DNA of 64,000 nt. It comes from Candidatus Falkowbacteria bacterium (GTDB lineage: Bacteria > Patescibacteriota > Patescibacteriia > Patescibacteriales > GWE2-39-37). The notes below the pieces were generated by a model. That model was not told where the DNA came from. It did no database searches and saw nothing but the letters and a program-made list of their open reading frames with translations. Shown here piece by piece: positions 2 to 52,515 of the stretch (position 1 is the first letter of the stretch; each line of letters begins with the position of its first letter). The translations under genes were made by a program, and so were the position numbers. Location: assembly GCA_037137775.1 (NCBI GenBank), contig JBAXJQ010000001.1, positions 32,316 to 96,315 on the forward strand, read 5' to 3'.

Positions 2-1117
2 ACCGAACCAGGTGCCCGTGATCGCGGTGGCGATTTAGGTTGGTTTGGTCGAGGTCAGATGGTTAAACCATTTGAGGATGCTGTCTATAGTATGAAAGTG
101 GGTGCCATTAGTGAGCCAGTTGAATCAGATTTTGGTTATCACTTAATTTATAAGCAAGCTGAACGAAAAGTAGAGGAGGCTAAAGTACAACACATTTTGA
201 TTAAAACTAAATCAGAAGTTGACATTACTGGCCCACAAACAGAGTGGAAAAATACTGAGCTTACCGGTAAAAATTTAAAGAATGCTCAAGCTCAGACTAA
301 TCCGAATGACGGTAGTCTAGAAGTTTCTTTAGAATTTGATGAACAAGGTGCAAAATATTTTGAAGAAATCACTGGCCGTAACGTTGGCAAACAAGTTGCT
401 ATCTTTTTGGATGGTTATATCATTAGTCAGCCAACGGTTAATGAAGCGATTAAGGGTGGTAAAGCAGTAATTAATGGCAAGTTTGGGGCACAAGAGGCCA
501 GGGATTTGGCCATGCGCTTAAATGCTGGTGCCTTGCCAATCCCAATTTCTTTAGTTGATCAACAGAATATCGGGGCTACCCTAGGCCAGAAATCAGTTGG
601 TGATAGTGCTCGTGCCGGCTTAATTGGCTTTGCTTTTGTGGCCATCTTTATGGTTTTGTTCTATCGTTTCCCAGGATTATTGTCCGTTGTTGCTTTGGGA
701 ATTTATGGAGTCTTGTTATTAGCTTTATTTAAGGTATTTTCTTTTGCACTTACCCTTTCTGGTTTAGCTGGCTTTATCATGTCAATTGGAATGGCCGTGG
801 ATGCCAATGTCTTGATCTTTTCCCGCTTACGCGAAGAAATTGCCAGTCAAAAACCATTTGGTCTAGCTTTGGATGAAGCATTCCGTCGTGCCTGGCCATC
901 CATTCGCGATAGTAATGTTTCAACATTAATTACTTGTGCAGTACTGTATTACACCTCGACCGGTATGGTGCGTGGGTTTGCAGTAACACTTGGCTTAGGT
1001 GTGCTTGTTTCAATGTTTACTGCTATTTTTGTCACCCGCACGTTCTTGAAATTAATTCCGGAAAACTGGCTCGAAAAATATCCTTTTTTAGTGGGCGGTA
1101 AAAAACAATCCAATTAA
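2..1117 (+). CDS. secD: Protein-export membrane protein SecD, 5'-truncated by the window edge. The same open frame upstream of the SecD periplasmic head encodes the C-terminal half of a parvulin-type PPIase (PpiC) domain.
   Basis: The frame is open from nt 2. Residues [20 protein letters not shown]...[10 protein letters not shown] match the parvulin signature. They are followed by SecD P1-head and TM motifs ([39 protein letters not shown]). secF follows directly. Confidence 0.8.
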
Positions 1118-1130
1118 ATCCAAATTTCAT

Positions 1131-2051
1131 ATGACAAATTTTAACATCATTCAAAAAAGAAATATCTGGCTCTGGATTTCAGTCGCGCTGTTTGTGGTCT
1201 TTGGCTTGGCTTTAATGGTATGGGGCTTAAAACTTGGCATCGATTTTACCGGTGGTAGCTTGCTCGAAGTTCGTTTTAGCACTAATCGACCAACAGTTAA
1301 TGAGGTTCAAGAATCACTTGCCCAAGATACTAAAGTGGGTAATTTGGGCAGCTTAATTATACAGCCTTTGGGTCAATCCGAAATGGCTTTACGTTTTCAG
1401 GAATCAAGTGAGGAAAAACACCAAGCGGTGGTAAAAAATTTACAGAGCTTAGCCCTTAAAAAAGACAAAAAGAACCAAGTTGAGGAGTTGCGTTTTGACG
1501 CGGTTGGCGCTTCAGTTGGGCAGGAATTAAAAAGCAAAGCAGTTTCTTCCATCTTTTGGGTTATGCTTTTCATTTTAATGTATATTAGTTGGACGTTTCG
1601 CAAGGTGTCTAAGCCAGTCGCTTCATGGAAATATGGTTTAGCGGCCTTAGTGGCGTTATTTCATGATGCAATCATTACTATGGGCGTCTTTGCTGTTTTG
1701 GGTAAGTTTTATGGCGTAGAGATTAACACCGCCTTTGTGACCGCAATTTTGACCGTAATCGGATACTCAGTGCACGATACTATTGTGGTGTTTGATCGAA
1801 CCCGTGAGAATCTACCAAAAAGCCACCTGGACTTTGAAGGTACGGTTAATATGAGCTTAAACCAAACCTTAGTCCGCTCCATTAATACTTCATTAACCGT
1901 ATTGCTTACCTTGATTGCAGTGACCATTTTTGGTGGCGCCTCAATTCGGACTTTTGCCCTAGCCCTTACTATTGGCATTGCCATTGGTACATATTCCTCT
2001 ATTTTTGTTGCTTCACCGCTTTTAGTAGTTTGGGAAAAATGGAAAAAATAA
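1131..2051 (+). CDS. secF: Protein-export membrane protein SecF
   Basis: 306 aa with an N-terminal TM and a periplasmic loop, then a 5-TM bundle (ALFHDAIITMGVFAVLG, TVIGYSVHDTIVVFDR). It lies immediately downstream of secD. Confidence 0.85.
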   Translation: MTNFNIIQKRNIWLWISVALFVVFGLALMVWGLKLGIDFTGGSLLEVRFSTNRPTVNEVQESLAQDTKVGNLGSLIIQPLGQSEMALRFQESSEEKHQAVVKNLQSLALKKDKKNQVEELRFDAVGASVGQELKSKAVSSIFWVMLFILMYISWTFRKVSKPVASWKYGLAALVALFHDAIITMGVFAVLGKFYGVEINTAFVTAILTVIGYSVHDTIVVFDRTRENLPKSHLDFEGTVNMSLNQTLVRSINTSLTVLLTLIAVTIFGGASIRTFALALTIGIAIGTYSSIFVASPLLVVWEKWKK

Positions 2052-5610: not shown

Positions 5611-6168
5611 ATGAATCTGAAAACATTTTGGCAATATTTTTTTTATAGCTTTGCAATTTTATTAGTAACTGAAATTCAGCTGGGTGCTTTGCCGGCCATG
5701 CCAGGAGTCTTGGCCTATACAGATGTTGCGATAATTTTTTTATTAGTTGTCTTGGTGCTTTATGATGTCACCACGGCGTTTTATTTTGGTTTAATGCTGG
5801 GCATTATTTTTGATGTGTTGAATTTTTGGTCATTTGGTCAGGCGGTAATTGGTATTGAAGTCGTACTGGTGGTTTGTTATATATTATTAACTAAAGTTTT
5901 TACTAATCGATCGCTCTATTCATTTTTAGCCTTAACTTTGATCGCAACCGTGGTATATTGGTTGGCGATTCGAATAACTGATATAACCACAGGATTTGTA
6001 TTTTCGGCACCTAGTCATTTGTTTTTTAACCCCGTAGCATTACGTTTATTGGGCTGGAAAATTGGCTTAAATTTAATAACATCAGCCATAACTTTCCAGA
6101 TAGCAACATTTATCAGCCACAGCTTAAAACCTGTCTTTTTGATGAAAAGCAATTATGTTAACCGATAA
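5611..6168 (+). CDS. mreD: Rod shape-determining protein MreD, polytopic membrane protein
   Basis: 185-aa hydrophobic protein between mreC and pbp2. Synteny supports the call; sequence conservation is weak. Confidence 0.55.
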   Translation: MNLKTFWQYFFYSFAILLVTEIQLGALPAMPGVLAYTDVAIIFLLVVLVLYDVTTAFYFGLMLGIIFDVLNFWSFGQAVIGIEVVLVVCYILLTKVFTNRSLYSFLALTLIATVVYWLAIRITDITTGFVFSAPSHLFFNPVALRLLGWKIGLNLITSAITFQIATFISHSLKPVFLMKSNYVNR

Positions 6169-8206
6169 AAAAAATGTAAATCAAGGCGATAATCCTTTTG
6201 TTATTCAGCAAGGACGGTTAAAGCATGGTAAAATTACTTCTTCATACCGATTAGGCTGGACAGAGGATGCGTTTATTATGGACGCAGGTCGCAAAGACGT
6301 TGTCGGTCGTACTATTTCAACAACTTATTTTAAATATCTCTTTGCTGGATGTTTGGTTTTTATTGGTTTACTTTTCGGACGGACGGCTTGGCTACAGGTT
6401 GCACAAGGCGATTATTATTATAAGATGGCCGAGGGAAATCGTATTAGAATTGAACGTATTGATTCTAAGCGCGGTATAATCTTCGATCGTCATGGCAAAG
6501 CTTTAGTTCGAAATCAAGCAAATTTTATGTTGTATTTGGTGCCGAGCGATCTGCCTAAAGATGATGCAGGCTTAGCCGCGGTTATTAAGCGGGTTAGTCA
6601 ATTAATTGGACCTTTGGGAAATTTAAATGGTGTACCAACAAATAATGAACAAAATATTAATGAAGCATCAGTTGAGTCTTATATTTTGGGGAAAATAAAA
6701 CCGATAAACAGGAAGTCGATTGCCGCTCTCGAGCCAGTATTTATTGCGGATAATTTGCCATATGAAAAAGCGTTGGCCCTTTCACTCGAGTCAACCGGCT
6801 TGCCTGGTGTTGTTTTATCAAGCTCGGCCAGACGACAATACAATGTTTCCGAAGCCGCTTCGTTAGCCCATGTCCTCGGCTATACCGGCAAGATAAATGA
6901 CAAGGAATTAGCTAAAGTAAAAACCGGCTATCAACCCATTGACTACATTGGCAAGTCTGGTTTGGAAAATTATTGGGAAAGTGAATTGCGAGGTGGCTTT
7001 GGTCAAAAACAGGTCGAGGTTGATGCCATGGGTAAAGAAAAGCGAATAATTAGCATTAAGCCAGCGGTTGACGGACAAGACTTAATTTTGTCCTTAGATT
7101 ATAATCTGCAAGCGAAAATTGAACAAATTACCAAGTCATATTTATCTGCAGCAAAATTAAGCCGTGCTTCGGTAGTAGCGATGGATCCGCGGTCGGGTGA
7201 GGTGTTGGCCATGGTCAGCTTACCGGCCTATGATGACAATATTTTTGCTCGGGGCATCAGTCAAAAAGAATATGATATTTTGTTAAATGATCCCGATCGT
7301 CCATTATATAATCGTAGCATGGGTGGCGAATTTCCTTCTGGGTCTACGATTAAGCCAGTGATTTCGGCTGCGGCCTTGCAAGAGGGCATAATTACTGAGA
7401 GTACGACATTTCTAAGTAATGGTGGCTTACGGATTGATAAATGGTTTTTTCCAGATTGGAAAGCTGGCGGACATGGCATGACTAATGTAAGAAAAGCAAT
7501 TGCCGAATCAGTAAATACATTTTTTTATATTATTGGTGGTGGGTATGAGGGCACAACCGGGCTAGGTGTTGATCGCTTGGCGAAATACTTTAAGCTTTTT
7601 GGGTTAGGCAGTCAGACCGGCATTGATTTGCCCGGTGAAGTGGACGGATTTGTACCGAGTAAAGAATGGAAAGAAACAACTAAAAAAGAAAATTGGTATA
7701 TCGGTGATACGTATCATCTTGCCATCGGCCAAGGCGATTTAAATGTTACTCCATTGCAGGTGGCCAATTACACTGCCTATTTTGCTAATGGGGGTAAATT
7801 GTTAGTGCCACATTTGGTTAAGGAAATTAGGCCAAGCGGCAGTCAGGTTGGTACGCCCGTGCCCGTCAAAATCATTCGTTCAGGTATTGTAAACCCCGCT
7901 TATGTGCAAATTGTGCGTGAGGGTATGCGTCAAACCGTAGTGGCTGGTAGTGCGCGTAGTTTGCAACAAGTGCCCGTGCCCATGGCGGGCAAAACAGGAA
8001 CGGCGCAGTGGTCTACTAAAAAAGATCCACATGCCTGGTTTACGGGCTTTGCGCCATATGACGACCCAACAATTGTTATTACGATTTTAGTTGAGGAAGG
8101 TAAGGAAGGTAGTACAATCGCCGTGCCGATCGCTCGGGAAGTATTACAATGGTATTTTGCCAGTAATCCAAAAATAAGTCCGACTTCAACGCCGGCTGCG
8201 TTTTAA
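6155..8206 (+). CDS. mrdA: Penicillin-binding protein 2 (peptidoglycan D,D-transpeptidase MrdA)
   Basis: N-terminal TM and a dimerisation domain, then transpeptidase motifs STIKP (SxxK), SxN and KTGTAQ. It lies in an operon with mreBCD. Confidence 0.88.
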   Translation: MLTDKKNVNQGDNPFVIQQGRLKHGKITSSYRLGWTEDAFIMDAGRKDVVGRTISTTYFKYLFAGCLVFIGLLFGRTAWLQVAQGDYYYKMAEGNRIRIERIDSKRGIIFDRHGKALVRNQANFMLYLVPSDLPKDDAGLAAVIKRVSQLIGPLGNLNGVPTNNEQNINEASVESYILGKIKPINRKSIAALEPVFIADNLPYEKALALSLESTGLPGVVLSSSARRQYNVSEAASLAHVLGYTGKINDKELAKVKTGYQPIDYIGKSGLENYWESELRGGFGQKQVEVDAMGKEKRIISIKPAVDGQDLILSLDYNLQAKIEQITKSYLSAAKLSRASVVAMDPRSGEVLAMVSLPAYDDNIFARGISQKEYDILLNDPDRPLYNRSMGGEFPSGSTIKPVISAAALQEGIITESTTFLSNGGLRIDKWFFPDWKAGGHGMTNVRKAIAESVNTFFYIIGGGYEGTTGLGVDRLAKYFKLFGLGSQTGIDLPGEVDGFVPSKEWKETTKKENWYIGDTYHLAIGQGDLNVTPLQVANYTAYFANGGKLLVPHLVKEIRPSGSQVGTPVPVKIIRSGIVNPAYVQIVREGMRQTVVAGSARSLQQVPVPMAGKTGTAQWSTKKDPHAWFTGFAPYDDPTIVITILVEEGKEGSTIAVPIAREVLQWYFASNPKISPTSTPAAF

Positions 8207-25687: not shown

Positions 25688-26280
25688 ACTAGTATTTTGC
25701 CCGCGGCCTCAAAGCCGAATAAGCCAATATTTAATAAATATTATTAAAATAAATAATATCGCGCTTTGCGATACCCTTATTTTTTACCATATGAGCAAAA
25801 GTATGTCAATAAGCGAGGTTTTTATGTAATTATTTTATTCAAAATTTGTAATATAATTATATAATGGCTAGATAATAACCGGCGTAGCGTAAAATTATAA
25901 AAATTTTAATATTAGCCAAAAATTTTGTATAAATCTTAATAAATTGGGAAAAAAATTAATAAACTCCAAATCGATAAAGTATATCTGAAATTGTCTAATA
26001 ATGAGTAAAAGTTAAGCTATTGACATTATCTTTGTAAAATGTTTTAATTATAAATCTTTTTACCATGGTCTAATCTGACCGGAAAGGGGGTGGGTTCTTT
26101 GCAAATTAATTCAACCGACGAGCAGGAGGCTCGTCAAACTCAAACCGGAGATAATCCGGTGTGCCATATTTCAAACCTACATGTGGTCGACAACCAGACT
26201 CGCGTCAGAATCTTTACTGACGCCTGGAAATTTTTTTGGCTCGAGCACAAAAAAAAGGGTGAAAACTAGGGCACTGCCCA

Positions 26281-26337
26281 GGCGGGAGATTTACAATACA
26301 TTTCAATGTACTGTAAATCTCCCGCCTATTTTATTTA
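26281..26337 (+). terminator. Strong rho-independent terminator closing an unassigned plus-strand transcription unit upstream of hrcA
   Basis: GGCGGGAGATTTACA...TGTAAATCTCCCGCC forms a 15-bp stem followed by TATTTTATTT. Confidence 0.6.
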
Positions 26338-26361
26338 ATTTTAACTAAAAATAAAATATTT

Positions 26362-26389
26362 TATAGCACTCTTGACAGGAGAGTGCTAA
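26362..26389. promoter_or_regulatory. CIRCE operator (HrcA binding site) overlapping a TTGACA -35 box
   Basis: aTAGCACTC-ttgacagga-GAGTGCTAA matches the consensus TTAGCACTC-N9-GAGTGCTAA. It lies about 35 nt upstream of hrcA. Confidence 0.8.
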
Positions 26390-26423
26390 TAGCAGTAAAC
26401 TGTTATTACTGCTTAAAGATAAA

Positions 26424-27122
26424 ATGAATATGGAAAAGCGCGGTGAAAAAATCTTACTTGCTTTAATTAAGGAACATATCAAAAGCGGCCAACCGGTCGG
26501 CTCTGAAGTGTTAGTTAATAAATACAAGCTAGGTGTTTCATCTGCAACCGTTCGTAATGAATTGTCAGCTTTAGAGGAGGGCGGGATGATTATGCAACCG
26601 CACACCTCAGCCGGGCGCGTTCCAACTGAGGCAGCCTATAGGTTTTACTTGGAAAAAAACAAAGCCCGGAAATTAACCGATACGGAGGAACAGCAACTTA
26701 ACGCACTCTTAACCGATACGGAGGAACAAAATCTCAAACAATTAGCCAAAACAGTGGCACAGCAAAGTGGCTTGGCAGTTATATGGGCTTTTCATCGACA
26801 TAATTTATATTATACTGGCATTGCTAATTTTTTATCCCAACCAGAATTCAATCAGCCCAATGTAATTTATGATATTTCGGGTATCATCGATCGTATGGAT
26901 GAGGTAATAGACCAGGTCTTTGATGAGATTTCTTTTACCCCAGAGATTTTACTTGGCTCGGCTAATCCGTTTAGTCCAGTATGTGCCACGGTGATTTCAA
27001 AATACCGGCACGGTAACCACACTGGCTTGGTTGGCATACTTGGACCGATGCGGATGTGCTATGAACGTAATCTTGCCATTGTAGAATATTTATCACAAAA
27101 ATTAAATTCACCTATTATATGA
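26424..27122 (+). CDS. hrcA: Heat-inducible transcription repressor HrcA
   Basis: ILLALIKEHIKSGQPVGSEVL...SSATVRNELSALEEGGMIMQPHTSAGRVPTE is the canonical HrcA N-terminal wHTH. A CIRCE element lies upstream. Confidence 0.85.
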   Translation: MNMEKRGEKILLALIKEHIKSGQPVGSEVLVNKYKLGVSSATVRNELSALEEGGMIMQPHTSAGRVPTEAAYRFYLEKNKARKLTDTEEQQLNALLTDTEEQNLKQLAKTVAQQSGLAVIWAFHRHNLYYTGIANFLSQPEFNQPNVIYDISGIIDRMDEVIDQVFDEISFTPEILLGSANPFSPVCATVISKYRHGNHTGLVGILGPMRMCYERNLAIVEYLSQKLNSPII

Positions 27123-27991
27123 CCAATCAGTCTAAAATTGAACATCCGTTAGCCATTGTTGGTGCTTTCATCTTCAACGACCATGATGAGTTGCTCTTAA
27201 TTTCCGCGCCAAAGTGGTTGGATAAATATGTCGTTCCAGGTGGCAAAGTTGAACTTGGCGAAACCATGGAACAGGCAATACGTCGCGAAATTAAAGAAGA
27301 AACTAATCTTGATTTGGAAGATTTAGAATTGATGGGTGTTTCAGAGCGAGTTGATTCTATGTCTGAAAATAATGCCGGAGTTAAGCACATGATTTTGATT
27401 GATTATAAAGCGAGAGTAAAGAAGCCACAGAAATTAAAATTAAATGATGAAGGTACTGAGTTTAAATGGCAAAAAATTGAGGATTGGCAGAACAATGATT
27501 CGGTTTATGCTGGCACGATGGGCAATATTAAAAAATACTTTCTTGACAAACCTGTAGATGAGTGGGAAGCACAATGCAAACGAGCCTTGGCCGATTATCA
27601 GAATTTACTCAAACAAACTACCAAAGAAAAAAATGAATTTATTAAATTCGCGAACGAGCGAATTATTAATGAATTTTTACCAGTGTATGATAATTTAAAA
27701 CTATCTTTGGCACATATCGATGCGGCGGCAGAAAAAAGTAATTGGCTGGTTGGCGTGCAGTATGTTATTAAGCAATTCAGTGAGATTTTATCACGTCATG
27801 GTGTTGAGGAAGTAAAGACCGTTGGTGAAAAATTTGATCACAGCTCGATGGAAGCGATTGAGAATCAAATTACTGATGATGAAAAACAAGACGATGTGGT
27901 GGTTCGTGAAATTAAATCAGGGTACATGTTACATGGCAAGATAATTACGCCAGCGCGAGTAGTGGTTTATCACTACGAAGTAAAGGCTTAG
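27119..27991 (+). CDS. grpE: NUDIX hydrolase domain fused to nucleotide-exchange factor GrpE
   Basis: Residues 1-140 carry a Nudix box (GKVELGETMEQAIRREIKEETNL fits Gx5Ex7REUxEE). Residues 150-290 are a GrpE coiled-coil plus beta-domain (FANERIINEF...GVEEVKTVGEKFDHSSMEAIE...GKIITPARVVV). The ORF is contiguous and overlaps the hrcA stop. Confidence 0.75.
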   Translation: MTNQSKIEHPLAIVGAFIFNDHDELLLISAPKWLDKYVVPGGKVELGETMEQAIRREIKEETNLDLEDLELMGVSERVDSMSENNAGVKHMILIDYKARVKKPQKLKLNDEGTEFKWQKIEDWQNNDSVYAGTMGNIKKYFLDKPVDEWEAQCKRALADYQNLLKQTTKEKNEFIKFANERIINEFLPVYDNLKLSLAHIDAAAEKSNWLVGVQYVIKQFSEILSRHGVEEVKTVGEKFDHSSMEAIENQITDDEKQDDVVVREIKSGYMLHGKIITPARVVVYHYEVKA

Positions 27992-28057
27992 TTATATATT
28001 AATTATTAAGGCCACCCCAGTGCATATTGCAGTAAGGTGGCACAGGGAGAAAACCAT

Positions 28058-28489
28058 ATGGCTCTCATCAAATGGACGCCCCTCCTTGAACCGTTCGAGG
28101 AGATGGACAAAGTGTTTCACGATTTTCTGCCAACAACCAGGCAGATGGGCTCTGGCTTTATGCCGGCCGTGGATATGTATGAAGATAAAGACAATGTGAC
28201 CGTCGAGGCACAGTTGGCTGGTATTGATCCGGATCAGGTTAGTGTCTCGATCGAAAATGATGTTTTGTCAATTAAGGGAGAAGGTGAAAAAAAGAGCGAG
28301 GTTGAAGAAAAAAATTATTATCGTAAAGAAATTCGTCGAGGCAGTTTTTATCGCTCTATTCAATTGCCGACGCATGTTTTGGGTGACAAAGCCAAGGCAA
28401 CGGCCGAAGATGGCGTATTAAAAATATCGATTCCCAAGGCACCAGAAACCAAGCCGAACACTATTAAGATTGAAACCAAGAAAAAATAA
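28058..28489 (+). CDS. Small heat-shock protein, Hsp20/alpha-crystallin family
   Basis: Alpha-crystallin domain (PAVDMYEDKDNVTVEAQLAGIDPDQVSVSIENDVLSIKGE...RSIQLP). The ATG at 28058 is preceded by AGGGAGA. Confidence 0.8.
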   Translation: MALIKWTPLLEPFEEMDKVFHDFLPTTRQMGSGFMPAVDMYEDKDNVTVEAQLAGIDPDQVSVSIENDVLSIKGEGEKKSEVEEKNYYRKEIRRGSFYRSIQLPTHVLGDKAKATAEDGVLKISIPKAPETKPNTIKIETKKK

Positions 28490-28543
28490 TTGTCGGATGA
28501 TACTTGGCCGAATATTCTTCGGTCAAGACTTGAGCCGAAAATT

Positions 28544-29116
28544 ATGCAAATCGAATACGAAGCCACATTTTATCCAATCGACAAAGACGATATCCGCTCA
28601 CGGTTGTTGGCGGTAGGAGCTGAATTGATTCGCTCAGAGTACGTGCAAGAGCGTTCGAATTATACTTTACCCAGTGGCCATGAAATTGCCGGCGGCTGGA
28701 TTCGCGTGCGTAATGAGGGTGATAAAAATACATTAACGTTAAAAGTGGTCGATGGTGAAAAAATTGAGAATCAGCGCGAAATAACCACAGAAGTAAAAGA
28801 TTTTAACGCAACGAAGCAGTTATTAGAGGCAATCGGCTGTAGACACAAAGCAACCCAGACAACCAAACGGGAATTGTGGCGCATCAAGAGTGTGGAGATT
28901 ATGATTGATGAATGGCCCTGGCTTGAGCCGTTTGTGGAAATTGAAGGGCCGTCAGAAATAGCCGTGCGAAATATTGCAGAAAAGCTCGGCTTTGATTACA
29001 AACAAGCTCATTTCGGCGCTGTTGATTCTTTGTATGCCGCTAAATATGGTATTAGCAAAGAACAAATTAACACGACTGAGCAAGTTACGTTTGAAGGTGA
29101 AAATCCATTTAAATAA
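28544..29116 (+). CDS. CYTH-domain protein (class IV adenylyl cyclase / triphosphatase family)
   Basis: The N-terminal MQIEYEATF corresponds to the EIERKF-type start of CYTH. The acidic beta-barrel pattern follows (WIRVRNEGDKNTLTLKV...EIE). Confidence 0.55.
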   Translation: MQIEYEATFYPIDKDDIRSRLLAVGAELIRSEYVQERSNYTLPSGHEIAGGWIRVRNEGDKNTLTLKVVDGEKIENQREITTEVKDFNATKQLLEAIGCRHKATQTTKRELWRIKSVEIMIDEWPWLEPFVEIEGPSEIAVRNIAEKLGFDYKQAHFGAVDSLYAAKYGISKEQINTTEQVTFEGENPFK

Positions 29117-29131
29117 TAAGTAATTAATTTT

Positions 29132-31027
29132 ATGTCAAAAATTTTAGGCATCGATTTAGGCACAACCAATTGTGCTATGGCTATCATCGAGGGTGGCCAA
29201 CCAAAAATCCTTGAAAATGCTGAAGGTGTGCGCACCACTCCTTCAATTGTAGCAGTCTCTAAAGCAGGTGAACGTTTAGTTGGTTTATCAGCAAAACGTC
29301 AGGCAGTAACTAATCCAGTTAATACCGTCTATGCAGTGAAACGATTAATTGGTCGTCGTTTTGGAGATGCAGAAGTGCAACGCGATTTAGGCGTAATGCC
29401 TTTTAAAATTGTAAAATCTGGTGATGGCGTCAAAGTGGTAATGACTGATAAAGAATATTCACCCCAGGAAGTGTCTGCTATGATACTGTCTAAGTTAAAG
29501 GCAGACGCTGAGGCGAAAACCGGGGAGAAAATTACTGAAGCTGTGATTACCGTACCGGCGTACTTTGATGATGCTCAGCGTCAGGCCACGAAAGATGCGG
29601 GCAAGATTGCCGGCTTGGATGTAAAACGCATTATAAACGAGCCAACCGCCGCTGCTTTGGCATATGGTTTTGATAAGAAGGCCGGCCAGCAGATTGTAGT
29701 TTACGATTTGGGTGGTGGCACTTTTGATATTTCTGTTTTAGATATTTCCGCTGACACGGTTGAAGTGAAATCTACCAATGGTAATACGCATTTAGGTGGT
29801 GAAGATTTCGATATGCGGATTATTAATTGGATTATTGAAGAGTTTAAAAAGGATCAAGGTGTTGATTTAAGTAAAGACACCTTGTCATTGCAACGCATCA
29901 AGGAGGCGGCAGAAAAAGCTAAGATAGAGTTGTCGACCGCCATGGAAACTGAAATCAATCAGCCATTTATTACTAGCGATGCTAACGGACCAAAGCATTT
30001 GGTAATGAAAATGAGTCGAGCTAAACTTGAATCATTGGTGATGGATTTGGTTGAAGCAACTTTAGAGCCAACCAAGGCCGCCTTAAAAGATGCTGGCTTA
30101 AGTGTTGGTCAGATTCAAGAAGTGGTTATGGTTGGGGGCATGACCCGTATGCCCTTAGTCTTACAAAAAGTGAAAGATTTTTTTGGTAAGGAGCCACATC
30201 TTGGTGTAAATCCGGATGAAGTAGTTGCCTTAGGTGCTGCAGTGCAAGCTGGTGTACTTCAAGGCGAGGTAAAAGATGTGTTGTTGCTAGATGTCACCCC
30301 CTTAACCTTAGGTATTGAAACTATGGGTGGTGTTTCTACCGCGTTAATTGAGCGCAACACTACGATTCCTACTTCAAAATCACAAGTATTTTCAACCGCT
30401 GCCGATAGCCAGACGAGCGTGGAGATCCATGTATTGCAGGGTGAACGGCCAATGGCAACGGATAATAAATCCTTAGGACGTTTCATCTTGGATGGTATTC
30501 CACCAGCACCTCGTGGCGTGCCTCAGGTTGAAGTTAAATTTGATCTCGATGCAAATGGCATCTTGAATGTTAGCGCTCGAGACAAGGCTACTAATAAAGA
30601 ACAAAAAATTACCATCACTTCATCTTCTGGATTATCCAAAGAAGAGGTAGAGCGGATGAAAAAGGAGGCCGAGTTGCATGCCGACGAAGACAAAAAGAAA
30701 AAAGATCAGATTGAAATAATGAATCAGGCCGAGTCGGTTGTATTTACCACAGAAAAACTTTTGAAAGAATCTGGTGAAAAAATGAAGCCCGAAGACAAGA
30801 CCGAGCTAGAGGGTAAGTTGGATGAATTAAAAAAAGCTAAAGAGGCGGGTGTAGCTGATACGGTCAAACAAAAGATGGATGAACTTTCAACCGTTGCACA
30901 ACGTATTGGCGCAGCGATGTATCAGCAAGCGGATAGTGTTGCCAATGATAGTCAGGGCAAAGCTGGACCAGCAGGAGAAGAACCAAAGAAAGAAGATGGT
31001 CCAGTTGAGGGCGAGGTAGTACAATAG
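29132..31027 (+). CDS. dnaK: Molecular chaperone DnaK (Hsp70)
   Basis: [21 protein letters not shown] and the substrate-binding domain through to the C-terminal lid are all present (631 aa). Confidence 0.95.
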
Positions 31028-31105: not shown

Positions 31106-32182
31106 ATGGCCAAGGATTATTATAATATATTAGGGGTGGACAAGGGTGCATCGGCGGAAGAAATTAAAAAGGCTTTTCGGAAAAAAGCCCACGAATATCA
31201 TCCCGATAAACCGCATGGCGATGAAGCTAAGTTTAAAGAAATCAATGAAGCCTATCAAACATTAAGCGACGTGAATAAGCGGGCGCAGTACGATCGATTT
31301 GGTTCAAACTACGAACAGGCGCAGCAAGGTGGTTTTGGCGGCTTCAACGGTTTTAATCAGGGACAAGGTGGTGTTGAATTTGATATGGGTGATTTGAGTG
31401 AGATGTTCGGCGGGTTCGGTGATATTTTTGGTTTTGGCGGCGGACGTGGCAAGGGTCGTTCGCAACGCGGCAAAGACATTGAGGTAACCCTCTCTCTCAA
31501 ATTTGAAGAAGCAATATTTGGCACGGAAAAAGAAATCGGTTTGAAAAAGGCGGTAGTGTGCGGTCATTGTCATGGTAATGGTGCAGAACCCGGTTCAAAA
31601 ATTGATACCTGTCAGACCTGTCAAGGCACAGGTCGAGTAGTACGTATACAGCGAACTATTCTGGGTAATGTACAGACTCAATCAGTCTGCCCAGATTGTC
31701 ATGGTGAAGGCAAGTCTTACAGTCAAAAATGCCGCCAATGCGGAGGTAACGGAGTTGAGCACAAGGTTGCCTCAATCAACGTAAAGATCCCCGCAGGTGT
31801 GGATAATGGCTCGGTGATTAAATTAGTAGGGCAGGGCGAGGCAGGTTTACACAGTGGCGGTATGGGTGATTTATATTTACATATTCGAGTTGAAACGAGT
31901 AAGCAATTTGAACGCAGGGGAGATGATATACTCGACCGAGTAGAAATCAGCATGACACAGGCTGCTTTAGGTGCTAAAATAGAGGTGCAAACCTTAGAAG
32001 GCGTCATTACCCTAAAAATTCCCGAGGGCACACAATCCGGTAAGGTATTCATATTGCGGGACCGCGGCGTGCCTCGACTAAAGAGCAAAGGCAGGGGTGA
32101 TCAGTTAGTGACAGTGGTAGTTAAAACTCCCACTAATCTATCCCGACATCAACGTCAATTATTAGAACAAATAGGTTTATAA
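31106..32182 (+). CDS. dnaJ: Chaperone DnaJ
   Basis: J-domain (HPDKP), a G/F-rich region, four CxxCxGxG zinc-finger repeats and the C-terminal domains. Confidence 0.9.
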   Translation: MAKDYYNILGVDKGASAEEIKKAFRKKAHEYHPDKPHGDEAKFKEINEAYQTLSDVNKRAQYDRFGSNYEQAQQGGFGGFNGFNQGQGGVEFDMGDLSEMFGGFGDIFGFGGGRGKGRSQRGKDIEVTLSLKFEEAIFGTEKEIGLKKAVVCGHCHGNGAEPGSKIDTCQTCQGTGRVVRIQRTILGNVQTQSVCPDCHGEGKSYSQKCRQCGGNGVEHKVASINVKIPAGVDNGSVIKLVGQGEAGLHSGGMGDLYLHIRVETSKQFERRGDDILDRVEISMTQAALGAKIEVQTLEGVITLKIPEGTQSGKVFILRDRGVPRLKSKGRGDQLVTVVVKTPTNLSRHQRQLLEQIGL

Positions 32183-47141: not shown

Positions 47142-47215
47142 GGTCGCATGGCTCAGTTGGTTAGAGCGCACCGTTCACATCGGTGAGGTCCCAGGTTCGA
47201 GTCCTGGTGCGACCA
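47142..47215 (+). tRNA. tRNA-Val (anticodon CAC)
   Basis: Cloverleaf with acceptor GGTCGCA/TGCGACC, D-arm GCTC-AGTTGGTTA-GAGC, anticodon arm CACCG-TTCACAT-CGGTG and T-arm CCAGG-TTCGAGT-CCTGG. CCA is not encoded. Confidence 0.9.
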
Positions 47216-52086: not shown

Positions 52087-52487
52087 TTCTAGGTCAAACA
52101 GGCGGCTGCTCGGGGCAAAAAATATGCCTCGGGAGGAAAGTCCGGACTCCAACAAAATGATGGTGGCTAACGGCCACGAGGAGTAATCCTACGGAAAGTG
52201 CCACAGAGACAATACTAGCTTCGAGTTAATCGAAGTGAAAGGTGAAAAGTTTCAAGAGGTTTTCGTTCTATTGGCTAGCCGTTTAACGAAGGCTACTTGA
52301 TTCGCTCCCATGTGAGTGGGATGCGTGGTAAACCCCATCTGGAGCAAGAGCAAACCTATAGGTTGTTGCATAAGCAATACGCTATAGATGAAAAGTGGCT
52401 CGCTTGAAGCGATTGGTAACAATCGTTCCAGATAGATAGTCGTCCTCTTAATTAAGAGACAGAATCCGGCTTACGGTTGGCCTAGAA
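52087..52487 (+). ncRNA. rnpB: RNase P RNA (bacterial rnpB)
   Basis: P4 strand GGGAGGAAAGTCCGGACTCC, the GTGCCACAGAGACAA region and the 3' ACAGAATCCGGCTTACGG are all conserved. P1 pairing is ttctaggtcaaac with ggttggcctagaa. Confidence 0.85.
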
Positions 52488-52515
52488 ATATCTGCATTGG
52501 TAAAATAAATAAATT

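Follow-up and report, generated by a model that had tools for sequence, protein, structure and literature searches.

A NUDIX domain fused to GrpE in a heat-shock operon

Does a GrpE that begins with a nucleotide hydrolase exist as a single protein, and does the hydrolase take part in the DnaK cycle? These questions are raised by the heat-shock operon of a Candidatus Falkowbacteria bacterium, which we studied in a window of 64,000 nucleotides (the whole stretch of DNA that was analysed). The genes of the operon are ordered hrcA, nudix-grpE, hsp20, CYTH, dnaK and dnaJ (Table 1). The second gene runs from its NUDIX to its GrpE part with no internal stop, and its ATG (27119-27121) overlaps the TGA of hrcA (27120-27122) within the tetranucleotide ATGA; both features were correctly read in the original prediction. 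The protein is 100% identical to MEI7497711.1 of NCBI (Candidatus Falkowbacteria), whose record carries the name "GrpE" alone.

Table 1. Features of the operon and of the nudix-grpE gene, in positions of the window.
Feature	Position	Strand	Details
CIRCE operator (predicted HrcA site)	26363..26389	+	ATAGCACTC-N9-GAGTGCTAA; 1 mismatch to consensus
Promoter-like site TTGACA-18-TAAACT	26372..26401	+	overlaps CIRCE; 10/12 consensus matches, consensus scan only
hrcA, short form	26424..27122	+	232 aa; PF01628 55.5 bits; TIGR00331 163 bits, under cutoff 197
nudix-grpE fusion gene	27119..27991	+	290 aa, span includes stop codon; one ORF
NUDIX domain	27149..27544	+	aa 11-142 in structure model; Pfam match aa 13-123
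Nudix box G42-L64	27242..27310	+	read from sequence; catalytic E48, R56, E57, E60, E61
Linker DKPVDE	27545..27562	+	aa 143-148; last NUDIX helix to GrpE stalk helix; model secondary structure
GrpE domain	27542..27967	+	aa 142-283; stalk helix, helical bundle, C-terminal beta domain; PF01025
hsp20 (small heat-shock protein)	28037..28489	+	PF00011 E=8.2e-21
CYTH (triphosphate tunnel) gene	28490..29116	+	PF01928 E=9.1e-12; likely start ATG at 28544
dnaK	29132..31027	+	PF00012 E=5.3e-252
dnaJ	31106..32182	+	PF00226, PF00684, PF01556

The two halves of the protein had been recognised from a near-canonical Nudix box and a GrpE-like remainder, and both assignments were confirmed by protein profiles. 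The N-terminal domain matched the NUDIX profile PF00293 with 64.5 bits (gathering score 21.1, E=1.3e-17), i.e., it did not fail the profile search that might have dismissed it. The rest of the protein matched the GrpE profile PF01025 with 133.4 bits (gathering score 25.8, E=8.2e-39) over positions 23 to 163 of the 165 in the profile. The Nudix box, GKVELGETMEQAIRREIKEETNL, follows the pattern GX5EX7REUXEEXGU save for N63, which replaces the penultimate glycine and is also the consensus residue of the fused family. The NUDIX part of an AlphaFold2 monomer model had a pLDDT of about 95.

The GrpE half also matched the sequences of solved GrpEs (4ani, E=1.9e-13; 1dkg, E=3.6e-10). Its residue G212 is invariant in one of our alignments (A1) and aligns with position 122 of the GrpE of Escherichia coli, where the 1dkg chain has an aspartate; we take G122 to be the site of the loss-of-function mutation grpE280 (G122D). 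The best NCBIfam equivalog model for GrpE (NF010750) scored 89 bits for a cutoff of 194. Since these PRK models are lineage-specific, and since the unfused GrpEs of Patescibacteria also fall below the NCBIfam cutoffs, we read this score as divergence and not as non-membership. We found no sign of an internal start that would produce a free GrpE: the candidate M134 has no Shine-Dalgarno-like sequence upstream and its position is not conserved in the fused family.

The setting of the gene in an operon controlled by CIRCE and HrcA was also borne out. The operator differs at one position from the consensus that we used (TTAGCACTC-N9-GAGTGCTAA), no match was found in 100 shuffles, the repressor has its Pfam domain, and the arrangement is conserved in relatives. 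A CIRCE with TTGACA inside its spacer was found upstream of hrcA in related loci, be they fused, HD-fused (see below) or unfused, and the TTGACA-18-TAAACT site of the window is a candidate promoter. The gene fills the grpE slot of the hrcA-grpE-dnaK-dnaJ operon, where related Patescibacteria have an unfused grpE. Because this is the canonical slot of a CIRCE/HrcA-repressed operon, NUDIX and GrpE should be produced together in a 1:1 ratio and upon heat induction. The neighbouring hsp20 is at the equivalent position in related operons, both fused and unfused. The CYTH gene was found at that position in none of 25 related loci, and its product scored under the cutoff of the cyaB model TIGR00318 (44.9 bits, cutoff 57.95).

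The fusion is conserved in Patescibacteria

The NUDIX-GrpE fusion is real and conserved. Both Pfam domains were present in a single protein, of 272 to 451 aa, in all of the 120 best clusters at 90% identity from the ENA, JGI, NCBI and Logan assemblies. Among all the proteins retrieved there were at least 180 NUDIX-GrpE and four NUDIX-NUDIX-GrpE; the corresponding numbers in the exhaustive search, for the 150 top representatives clustered at 50% identity, were 49 and three. The fused sequences range from 30 to 100% identity, come from many assemblies and sources, and are all encoded in a single frame. Named members are all Patescibacteria, i.e., Falkowbacteria, Kuenenbacteria, Magasanikbacteria and bacteria of Parcubacteria type, and the fusion occupies the same operon slot in five loci that we compared (L001, L081, L082, L084, L085).

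These data bear on the concern, raised in the original prediction, that a sequencing error might have hidden the boundary between two ORFs. A frameshift or an assembly artefact that joined two genes has a negligible probability given at least 180 independent single-frame fusions and an identical protein at NCBI. We ruled it out on the basis of MEI7497711.1 and of the 120 clusters, every one of which has both domains. The proposed search of related genomes for fused and separate versions of the genes thus returned at least 180 fused clusters, and also unfused GrpEs. Unfused relatives were found in a pattern scan of species genomes (GTDB), of which we kept 80 loci among the matches listed. The fusion was seen only in L001 in this set, but the pattern (RE[VIT]KEE..) is very generic, and the scan is a source of unfused relatives and not a census of the fusion.

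The catalytic residues of the NUDIX domain are highly conserved in the fused family. E48, R56, E57, E60 and E61 were conserved in 97-100% of the 120 closest fused proteins, and four of them (E48, R56, E60, E61) are invariant in alignment A1. In 118 of 144 fused proteins, the REx2EE motif of the Nudix box and the ALADYQN motif of GrpE lie 97-102 residues apart. This shows that the catalytic residues and the spacing between the domains are under constraint.

The NUDIX half resembles small NTP pyrophosphohydrolases

The fused domain has the fold, the Nudix box and the catalytic residues of small NUDIX NTP pyrophosphohydrolases, such as NudI/YfaO, MutT and homologs of about 140 aa in Patescibacteria and archaea. 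The latter carry the label 'nucleoside triphosphatase' at JGI. A Foldseek search of the PDB gave TM-scores, normalised by the target, of 0.75-0.84 to small NUDIX enzymes (e.g., 4kyx with 0.79 and E=5.7e-11, 1vc8 with 0.84), at sequence identities to solved NUDIX enzymes of at most 27%. When the N-terminal domain alone was compared with NCBIfam, every curated NUDIX equivalog model was far under its cutoff, and the nearest were of NTP type: MutT (TIGR00586, 36.0 bits, cutoff 97.9) and NudI (NF012016, 35.3 bits, cutoff 95). We therefore assign the domain to no NUDIX subfamily and to no substrate: sequence search of the PDB, Foldseek and NCBIfam all gave a generic resemblance to small NUDIX enzymes, below all cutoffs.

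The substrates originally suggested, ADP-ribose, Ap(n)A and (p)ppGpp, are not favoured by these results, the nearest relatives being of NTP type, at scores under the cutoffs. Enzymes acting on ADP-ribose have a proline about 15-16 residues after the Nudix box, and those acting on Ap4A a tyrosine about 16-18 residues after it. Neither marker is at the expected spacing in the fusion, where residues 79-82 are DSMS, and the consensus of the family has a tyrosine only at about +20; such a rule of thumb is a weak test. From its residues, the NUDIX domain is apparently catalytically competent.

The closest relatives of the fused domain, among the matches listed in a search with this domain, are stand-alone NUDIX proteins; they are about 140 aa long and 40-50% identical to it. 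The matches listed comprised stand-alone proteins and none of the fused ones, although these contain the query, so the list served to find stand-alone relatives and is no full ranking. Residues N20, W33, H90, E111 and W117 are conserved in both. The fused domain differs from this stand-alone family by its covalent link to GrpE and by relaxed conservation at T13, H43, Q75, E76, F77, F85, C98 and T100, so its substrate range may differ. One stand-alone copy lies directly upstream of the fused gene in L001, as expected of the precursor of the fusion or of a duplicate. We found no heat-shock neighbourhood around two other stand-alone relatives (P0123, P0125), which suggests that the association with heat-shock genes is lineage-specific.

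An unrelated hydrolase at the same end of GrpE

A second architecture has an HD domain at the N-terminal end of GrpE. This HD-GrpE is similar to NUDIX-GrpE in that it places a domain of nucleotide pyrophosphohydrolase type on a GrpE of Patescibacteria type, encoded between hrcA and dnaK and behind a CIRCE. It differs by its unrelated fold and by its rarity: we found three clusters (P0308, P0390, P0391; 52-53% identical to each other), against at least 180 of NUDIX-GrpE. The HD domain keeps the H..HD..D metal ligands and is most similar to Lin1889 (3b57) and to YpgQ of Bacillus subtilis (5dqv, E about 1e-9 for YpgQ), whereas its match to the Ap4A hydrolase YqeK (2o08) had an E-value of 0.046. 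YpgQ itself is a (d)NTP pyrophosphohydrolase that forms homodimers and depends on Mn (PMC8177086). The presence of an unrelated fold of this type at the same end of GrpE suggests that the chemistry, and not just a structural cap, has been selected.

Other GrpEs, loss and inactivation

The C-terminal 150 residues of the fusion align end to end with canonical GrpEs (E. coli, 1DKG; Geobacillus kaustophilus, 4ANI). The disordered N-terminal tail of E. coli GrpE is absent, and a folded NUDIX domain of about 140 residues is found instead. Counted N-terminal to the R-x-x-A-D/E motif, the stalk helix of E. coli GrpE is also longer, by about 18 residues. The shorter stalk is shared by the unfused relatives, in which the median number of residues before ALADYQN is 43 (66 in E. 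coli). The N-terminal tails of E. coli GrpE act on the substrate-binding domain of DnaK, where their IIM motif binds the substrate site (PMC12915176), and hence this end of GrpE is adjacent to DnaK. A GrpE with another functional domain, an added helix-turn-helix, is described for All4144 of Anabaena (bioRxiv 10.1101/2025.04.14.648684); it is also bacterial, but the domain binds DNA, is not an enzyme and occurs in another lineage.

The NUDIX domain is not a fixed part of these proteins. The GrpE parts of seven unfused loci (L002-L008) are as similar to ours as those of fused proteins, and they nest among the fused ones in a neighbour-joining tree, which suggests that the domain is easily gained or lost. 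In such a tree the fused NUDIX domains form one group, with few exceptions. The trees have no support values and were used only for this grouping and for the interleaving of fused and unfused proteins. Among 52 fused representatives, about 7-12 have substitutions of the catalytic glutamates (e.g., P0249, P0269, P0261, P0272, P0265, P0288). With the catalytic residues or the whole domain lost in some lineages, the NUDIX activity is dispensable for GrpE. The N-terminus of related GrpEs also accommodates DUF1653 and other unrecognised segments, and may simply be permissive for additions. The long N-terminal regions of P0264, P0314, P0315 and P0326 gave no significant match to the family alignment that would reveal a decayed NUDIX domain (hhalign probability 0.3-4.4%). 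We found no residues of DnaK that track the fusion state: two columns were weakly discriminating in a comparison of low power between six partners of fused and seven partners of unfused GrpEs.

What the fused enzyme might do

We lean towards the reading that this is an ordinary operon GrpE whose short, charged N-terminal tail was replaced by a MutT/NudI-like NUDIX domain acting on NTP-like nucleotides beside DnaK. We infer the following mechanism. The GrpE half would perform the normal exchange of ADP for ATP on DnaK. GrpE forms parallel homodimers, which would place a pair of NUDIX domains next to each other at the distal end of the stalk; in E. coli this end points towards the substrate-binding domain of DnaK. 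The NUDIX domains would hydrolyse a nucleoside polyphosphate that resembles an NTP, with (d)NTPs that are damaged or non-canonical, or related stress nucleotides, as the most likely substrates, and the tether to GrpE would bring this clean-up to the place and the moment where DnaK is nucleotide-free and about to rebind ATP. A more specific version of the idea is doubtful in our opinion, namely that of a 'proofreading' exchange factor, in which the pyrophosphohydrolase at the stalk, be it NUDIX or, in a sister lineage, the YpgQ-like HD domain, destroys nucleotides other than ATP that would otherwise occupy the nucleotide-free DnaK. Candidate targets would be damaged or deoxy NTPs and stress nucleotides of Np4N type. 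If this were true, the Hsp70 cycle would mechanistically include nucleotide sanitation, and DnaK function under stress would be measurably impaired without it.

The coupling of nucleotide exchange on DnaK to nucleotide hydrolysis, as originally proposed, is not established, and the evidence is mixed. The conserved catalytic residues, the short and nearly fixed linker and the HD analogue at the same end all point towards a functional link of the NUDIX domain to the DnaK cycle, which is plausible. The nesting of unfused GrpEs among fused ones, the loss of catalytic glutamates and the lack of co-adaptation in DnaK argue against an obligatory link. Another reading is that an independent house-cleaning NUDIX was fused to the adjacent grpE and is thereby expressed stoichiometrically and upon heat, with no physical or kinetic interplay with DnaK. 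This is possible, though we would not bet on it: free-standing relatives with the same catalytic core, among the matches listed, and the copy immediately upstream of the fused gene in L001 fit this explanation, as do the repeated loss of the domain and the lack of co-adaptation in DnaK, but two stand-alone relatives elsewhere lie outside heat-shock neighbourhoods, the domains are joined by a short linker of constant length instead of a flexible one, catalytically dead copies are still kept on GrpE, and the same site has also received an unrelated enzyme whose reaction is of the same class.

The dead copies could also indicate that catalysis is secondary, and that the NUDIX domain is a structural or regulatory module: a dimeric cap that stabilises the dimer on its short stalk, a substitute for the thermosensor or tail, or a nucleotide-binding sensor that tunes exchange. 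In several fused representatives (e.g., P0261, P0272, P0265, P0288), a NUDIX domain that is still recognisable but has substituted catalytic residues goes along with a strongly conserved GrpE half. The short stalk of GrpEs that lack a long tail, the fixed spacing between the domains and the relaxation of the fused domain where the stand-alone family is conserved are consistent with such a role. We nevertheless find it unlikely, because a purely structural role does not need catalytic residues conserved at 97-100% within the clade, many close relatives work without any N-terminal domain, and the HD analogue retains its metal ligands. Even less probable, in our view, is that the NUDIX domain directly drives or gates exchange by degrading ADP that leaves DnaK, or else ADP-ribose, Ap4A or (p)ppGpp. 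The N-terminal end of GrpE is distal to the nucleotide cleft of DnaK in the 1DKG structure, the ADP-ribose and Ap4A markers are absent after the box, and the HD analogue resembles YpgQ and not YqeK. Hydrolases of Ap4A or Ap6A (1vc8, 3i7u, 1ktg) are among the structural neighbours of the domain, but their scores do not exceed those of NudI, MutT or GDP-mannose hydrolase. The explanation draws some support from the reported binding of Ap4A to DnaK, GroEL and ClpB and from the heat sensitivity of apaH mutants (Johnstone and Farr 1991, as summarised in PMC10148737).

Significance of the fusion

Neither the NUDIX-GrpE nor the HD-GrpE fusion is described in the literature that we searched, including a 2025 review on GrpE, and the NUDIX-GrpE fusion is apparently an undescribed variant of GrpE. 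Public records call such proteins just GrpE, an annotation that can now be corrected. GrpE is among the best-studied co-chaperones, and its N-terminal end is under active study for its action on the substrate-binding domain and for temperature sensing (PMC12915176; PMC12987570). An enzyme acting on nucleotides in place of this end would be unexpected to Hsp70 specialists, and it adds to the surprise that the site can also carry an enzyme that is unrelated to NUDIX but whose reaction is of the same class. If the activities are uncoupled, the fused, catalytically dead and unfused close relatives provide a natural experiment on the need for the N-terminus of GrpE. Should they be coupled, an Hsp70 exchange factor would for the first time be seen to have its own nucleotide quality control, and this would bear on how ATP-driven machines are protected in the genome-reduced, nucleotide-scavenging Patescibacteria.

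A NUDIX domain fused to GrpE in the heat-shock operon

The original prediction had placed a NUDIX hydrolase domain ahead of GrpE, in one continuous frame, within the CIRCE/HrcA heat-shock operon. This was confirmed in full: both parts of the single ORF exceeded the Pfam gathering scores, the quoted near-canonical Nudix box has a single departure, and hrcA, preceded by a CIRCE, lies directly before nudix-grpE (see table). The start codon of nudix-grpE overlaps the hrcA stop codon as ATGA (27119-27122), an arrangement typical of translationally coupled genes. The operon continues with hsp20, CYTH, dnaK and dnaJ.

Features of the window, of the fused protein and of related loci
Feature	Position	Strand	Description
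Stable intergenic fold	26060-26340	+	rpmA (minus strand) to hrcA promoter; -105.6 kcal/mol, z = -7.6
Terminal hairpin	26281-26327		16 bp, then T-run
CIRCE	26363-26389		upstream of hrcA; 1 mismatch; 0 in 100 shuffles
TTGACA-18-TAAACT	26372-26401		top-scoring promoter-like site; overlaps CIRCE
hrcA	26424-27122		232 aa
nudix-grpE	27119-27991	+	single 290-aa ORF without internal stop
Nudix box	residues 42-64 (27242-27310)		fits GX5EX7REUXEEXGU except penultimate G to N
NUDIX (Pfam)	residues 13-123		64.5 bits (gathering score 21.1), E=1.3e-17
GrpE (Pfam)	residues 142-283		133.4 bits (gathering score 25.8), E=8.2e-39; profile positions 23-163 of 165
NUDIX (model)	residues 11-142		pLDDT about 95
Linker (model)	residues 143-148		six residues, DKPVDE
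GrpE helices (model)	residues 149-165, 168-198, 208-226		pLDDT reduced over about 141-210
GrpE beta domain (model)	residues 229-286
CYTH gene	28490-29116	+	likely start 28544
tRNA	47142-47215		Rfam
RNase P RNA class A (bacterial)	52090-52488		Rfam, 224.6 bits
L001 stand-alone NUDIX gene	1062-1505		adjoins the fusion, upstream
L001 NUDIX-GrpE gene	1520-2368
L086 HD-grpE	6001-6918		hrcA and dnaK either side; perfect CIRCE ahead
~300-aa hsp20-dnaK interval protein	L081 8797-9720; L082 8659-9525; L084 8865-9773; L085 8362-9267; L002 1566-2540

The window HrcA is unusually short and matched TIGR00331 in two stretches (163 bits against a cutoff of 197); in related Patescibacteria it is likewise short (227-288 aa). 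The CYTH (triphosphate tunnel metalloenzyme) gene between hsp20 and dnaK adds another phosphohydrolase-type gene to the operon. It matched PF01928 (E=9e-12), scored under the cutoff of the cyaB model, and has IEYEAT as its first motif, i.e., ExExT instead of ExExK; at this position, all of 25 related loci are without a CYTH gene. The very stable intergenic fold matched no Rfam family and is possibly an unannotated small RNA. Only two Rfam matches in the window, the RNase P RNA and one tRNA, were above gathering scores.

The fusion fills the housekeeping grpE slot

In four distant fused homologs, on contigs of up to 1.27 Mb, the gene is flanked by hrcA and hsp20, with dnaK and dnaJ downstream; other Patescibacteria have an ordinary grpE, without the fusion, in the same slot. 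A CIRCE with a TTGACA -35 element in its spacer is kept upstream of hrcA in fused, HD-fused and unfused loci. The GrpE half aligned to solved GrpEs (4ani, E=1.9e-13; 1dkg, E=3.6e-10), and G212, invariant in the fused family, aligned to position 122 of E. coli GrpE, the residue altered in the classic loss-of-function mutant grpE280. Judged from sequence and gene order, nudix-grpE is the housekeeping grpE.

The hsp20-dnaK interval of related operons encodes a conserved ~300-aa protein without Pfam match, whose copies are mutually 31-36% identical. Its N-terminus is basic, and it also has a single hydrophobic segment, a stretch resembling a coiled coil and a domain at the C-terminus. In many of these operons, dnaK and dnaJ are separated by a DUF3467 gene; neither gene occurs in the window.

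The fusion is found in many related genomes

Searching 5.8 billion proteins with the window protein gave 737 matches. PF01025 and PF00293 were both present in all of the best 120 (90%-identity clusters from ENA, JGI, NCBI and Logan assemblies, with lengths of 272-451 aa and 41-100% identity to the query). The recurrence of this architecture across many assembly sources rules out an artefact joining two ORFs. When 1.84 billion 50%-identity representatives were searched exhaustively with HMMER, the top 150 included 49 NUDIX-GrpE and three NUDIX-NUDIX-GrpE proteins, with identity reaching down to about 30%. The fusion, which had been suggested as something to look for in related genomes, was found in at least 180 NUDIX-GrpE and at least four NUDIX-NUDIX-GrpE proteins when all retrieved proteins were classified; unfused grpE also exists. 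MEI7497711.1 (NCBI), from Falkowbacteria (Patescibacteria, Parcubacteria group), is 100% identical to the window protein, and further named carriers are Kuenenbacteria, Magasanikbacteria, Parcubacteria and "Patescibacteria group". Database names of fused proteins give GrpE alone, except for P0052 (JGI), which adds "8-oxo-dGTP pyrophosphatase MutT".

Patescibacteria-type hrcA-grpE-dnaK operons, with hsp20 additionally in L006 and L008, also occur in MAGs that bear the title "uncultured Gammaproteobacteria" or, in one case, "Planctomycetes" (loci L006, L008, L032 and L033; protein P0043). Their GrpEs are 35-49% identical to that of the window, and the source bins are probably mislabelled or contaminated.

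Anatomy of the fused protein

We modelled the protein with AlphaFold2 from a 45-sequence alignment (mean pLDDT 84). The pLDDT drop over the GrpE helices is expected because a dimeric protein was modelled as a monomer, and the pTM of 0.50 makes the relative orientation of the domains unreliable. In 118 of 144 fused proteins, REx2EE and the GrpE motif ALADYQN lie 97-102 residues apart (range over all 144, 93-122). Hence, the junction is short and of near-fixed length, not a floppy tether. E. coli R64 aligned with window R155, and the stalk helix ahead of that motif is ~18 residues shorter in the window protein, which lacks the roughly 33-residue disordered tail of E. coli GrpE. Unfused relatives have short K/E/D-rich tails (median 43 residues ahead of the motif, against 66 in E. 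coli), so the short stalk is a lineage trait and the NUDIX domain stands in for the charged tail. In E. coli, the IIM motif of the GrpE tails binds the DnaK substrate site and substrate release is promoted temperature-dependently (PMC12915176); the thermosensor is the GrpE stalk (PMC12987570).

Two unrelated enzyme folds at the same end of GrpE

The catalytic residues E48, R56, E57, E60 and E61 are 97-100% conserved across the 120 closest fused proteins, and E48, R56, E60 and E61 do not vary in the 45-sequence alignment. In sequence and fold alike, the domain is similar to generic small NUDIX enzymes, with no more than 27% identity (4kyx, NudI 3oga/6dt3, GDP-mannose hydrolase 1rya, Ap6A hydrolase 1vc8, MutT and MutT1). 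All curated NCBIfam NUDIX equivalogs scored far under cutoff, the top partial matches being NAD(+) diphosphatase, MutT and NudI. Among the matches listed, the closest relatives are free-standing ~140-aa proteins (40-50% identity) from Patescibacteria, archaea and others, labelled "nucleoside triphosphatase" by JGI; the two examined on long contigs had no heat-shock neighbourhood. Fused and stand-alone domains share the catalytic core, N20, W33, H90, E111 and W117. T13, H43, Q75, E76, F77, F85, C98 and T100 are tight in stand-alones and relaxed in the fused domain, in a comparison somewhat biased by the different ascertainment of the two sets; among the 120 closest fused proteins themselves, region 73-89 likewise lacks conservation.

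The long-N GrpE P0308 has an HD domain (PF01966, E=1.2e-9) where NUDIX would be. P0390 and P0391 share this architecture, are only 52-53% identical to P0308 and come from different sources; L086 is a locus of this kind. The HD part is closest to Lin1889 (3b57, 6e-10), then to 5dqv (1.7e-9); YqeK (2o08), an Ap4A hydrolase, gave only a marginal match (E=0.046). The 5dqv entry corresponds to YpgQ of B. subtilis, a (d)NTP pyrophosphohydrolase that is Mn-dependent and homodimeric and has H29, H58, D59 and D124 as ligands (PMC8177086); the matching H..HD..D residues are kept in all three HD-GrpE proteins. HD-GrpE is a convergent analogue of NUDIX-GrpE: HD and NUDIX are unrelated folds, yet they share the GrpE end, the regulon and the reaction class (NTP to NMP + PPi).

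Gain, loss and decay of the N-terminal domain

Nearly all fused NUDIX domains fell in a single block of a neighbour-joining tree, together with the distal copies of NUDIX-NUDIX-GrpE and a few stand-alones, one being the gene immediately upstream of the L001 fusion. This is consistent with one ancestral fusion and later local duplications. The NUDIX-NUDIX-GrpE proteins P0018, P0267, P0287 and P0317 have ~450 aa. In the GrpE-domain tree, unfused GrpEs (L002, L003, L004 and the L005-L008 clade) stand intermixed among fused ones, which implies repeated loss of the N-terminal domain or, less likely, repeated gain; the GrpE halves of the unfused L002-L008 proteins equal those of fused members in score. 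The domain is clearly dispensable in close relatives.

Most of 52 fused representatives keep G/E/RE/EE. Some have substituted catalytic glutamates and a still strong GrpE half (positions G, E, R, E, E, E read GERAEQ in P0249, GERKET in P0269, GAGHEQ in P0261, DERIEH in P0272, GERIAE in P0265 and AKKKKE in P0288, the last still above the Pfam NUDIX threshold). Among 117 matches to the HD-GrpE query, a less biased sample of related GrpEs, 19 carried NUDIX, five DUF1653 and most nothing.

DUF1653-GrpE fusions (~205 aa) and one protein with a dead NUDIX, DUF1653 and GrpE, in that order, are among P0450, P0453, P0470, P0490, P0259 and P0282; we know of no function for DUF1653. The GrpEs P0264, P0314, P0315 and P0326 have N-terminal extensions of 115-140 residues, which matched no Pfam family and had no significant similarity to the NUDIX family profile.

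Possible roles of the fusion

The heat-shock operon product is a bifunctional polypeptide, in which a conserved NUDIX core, predicted to be catalytic, has a rigid junction to a bona fide GrpE, and this identity is near certain. With GrpE as a parallel dimer, a pair of NUDIX domains would sit at the tip of the stalk, close to the DnaK substrate-binding domain, where they may cleave NTP-like nucleoside polyphosphates; the tether would concentrate nucleotide clean-up where DnaK is transiently empty. We lean slightly towards this overall account. Direct kinetic coupling of NUDIX and the DnaK cycle is doubtful, and no DnaK residues tracking the fusion state were found.

NUDIX and GrpE might have been fused only for shared expression, which we consider rather unlikely; two unrelated folds of one reaction class on one GrpE end hint that the chemistry matters to GrpE/DnaK, the strongest comparative pointer, from only three HD clusters. 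A mainly structural or sensor NUDIX domain is less likely still. Substituted glutamates in retained domains show that catalysis is dispensable in some lineages and that a dead NUDIX can persist. In the window's clade, the conservation of catalytic residues speaks for catalysis being kept. The original prediction gave ADP-ribose, Ap(n)A and (p)ppGpp-like stress alarmones as example substrates. Ap4A is cited as binding DnaK (Johnstone and Farr 1991, cited in PMC10148737), but neither the NUDIX nor the HD domain preferentially resembles dedicated Ap4A enzymes, and we find ADP, ADP-ribose, Ap4A or ppGpp improbable as the substrate.

Neither NUDIX-GrpE nor HD-GrpE appeared in a full-text literature search, although mention elsewhere is possible, nor in a 2025 review of GrpE-like factors or a 2025 survey of Patescibacterial factors. 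The sequences are already public under plain GrpE names; what appears new is a GrpE with a putative N-terminal nucleotide-pyrophosphohydrolase module. The functional meaning given here to the fusion is a proposal, but it is directly testable, and NUDIX-GrpE would surprise Hsp70 specialists.
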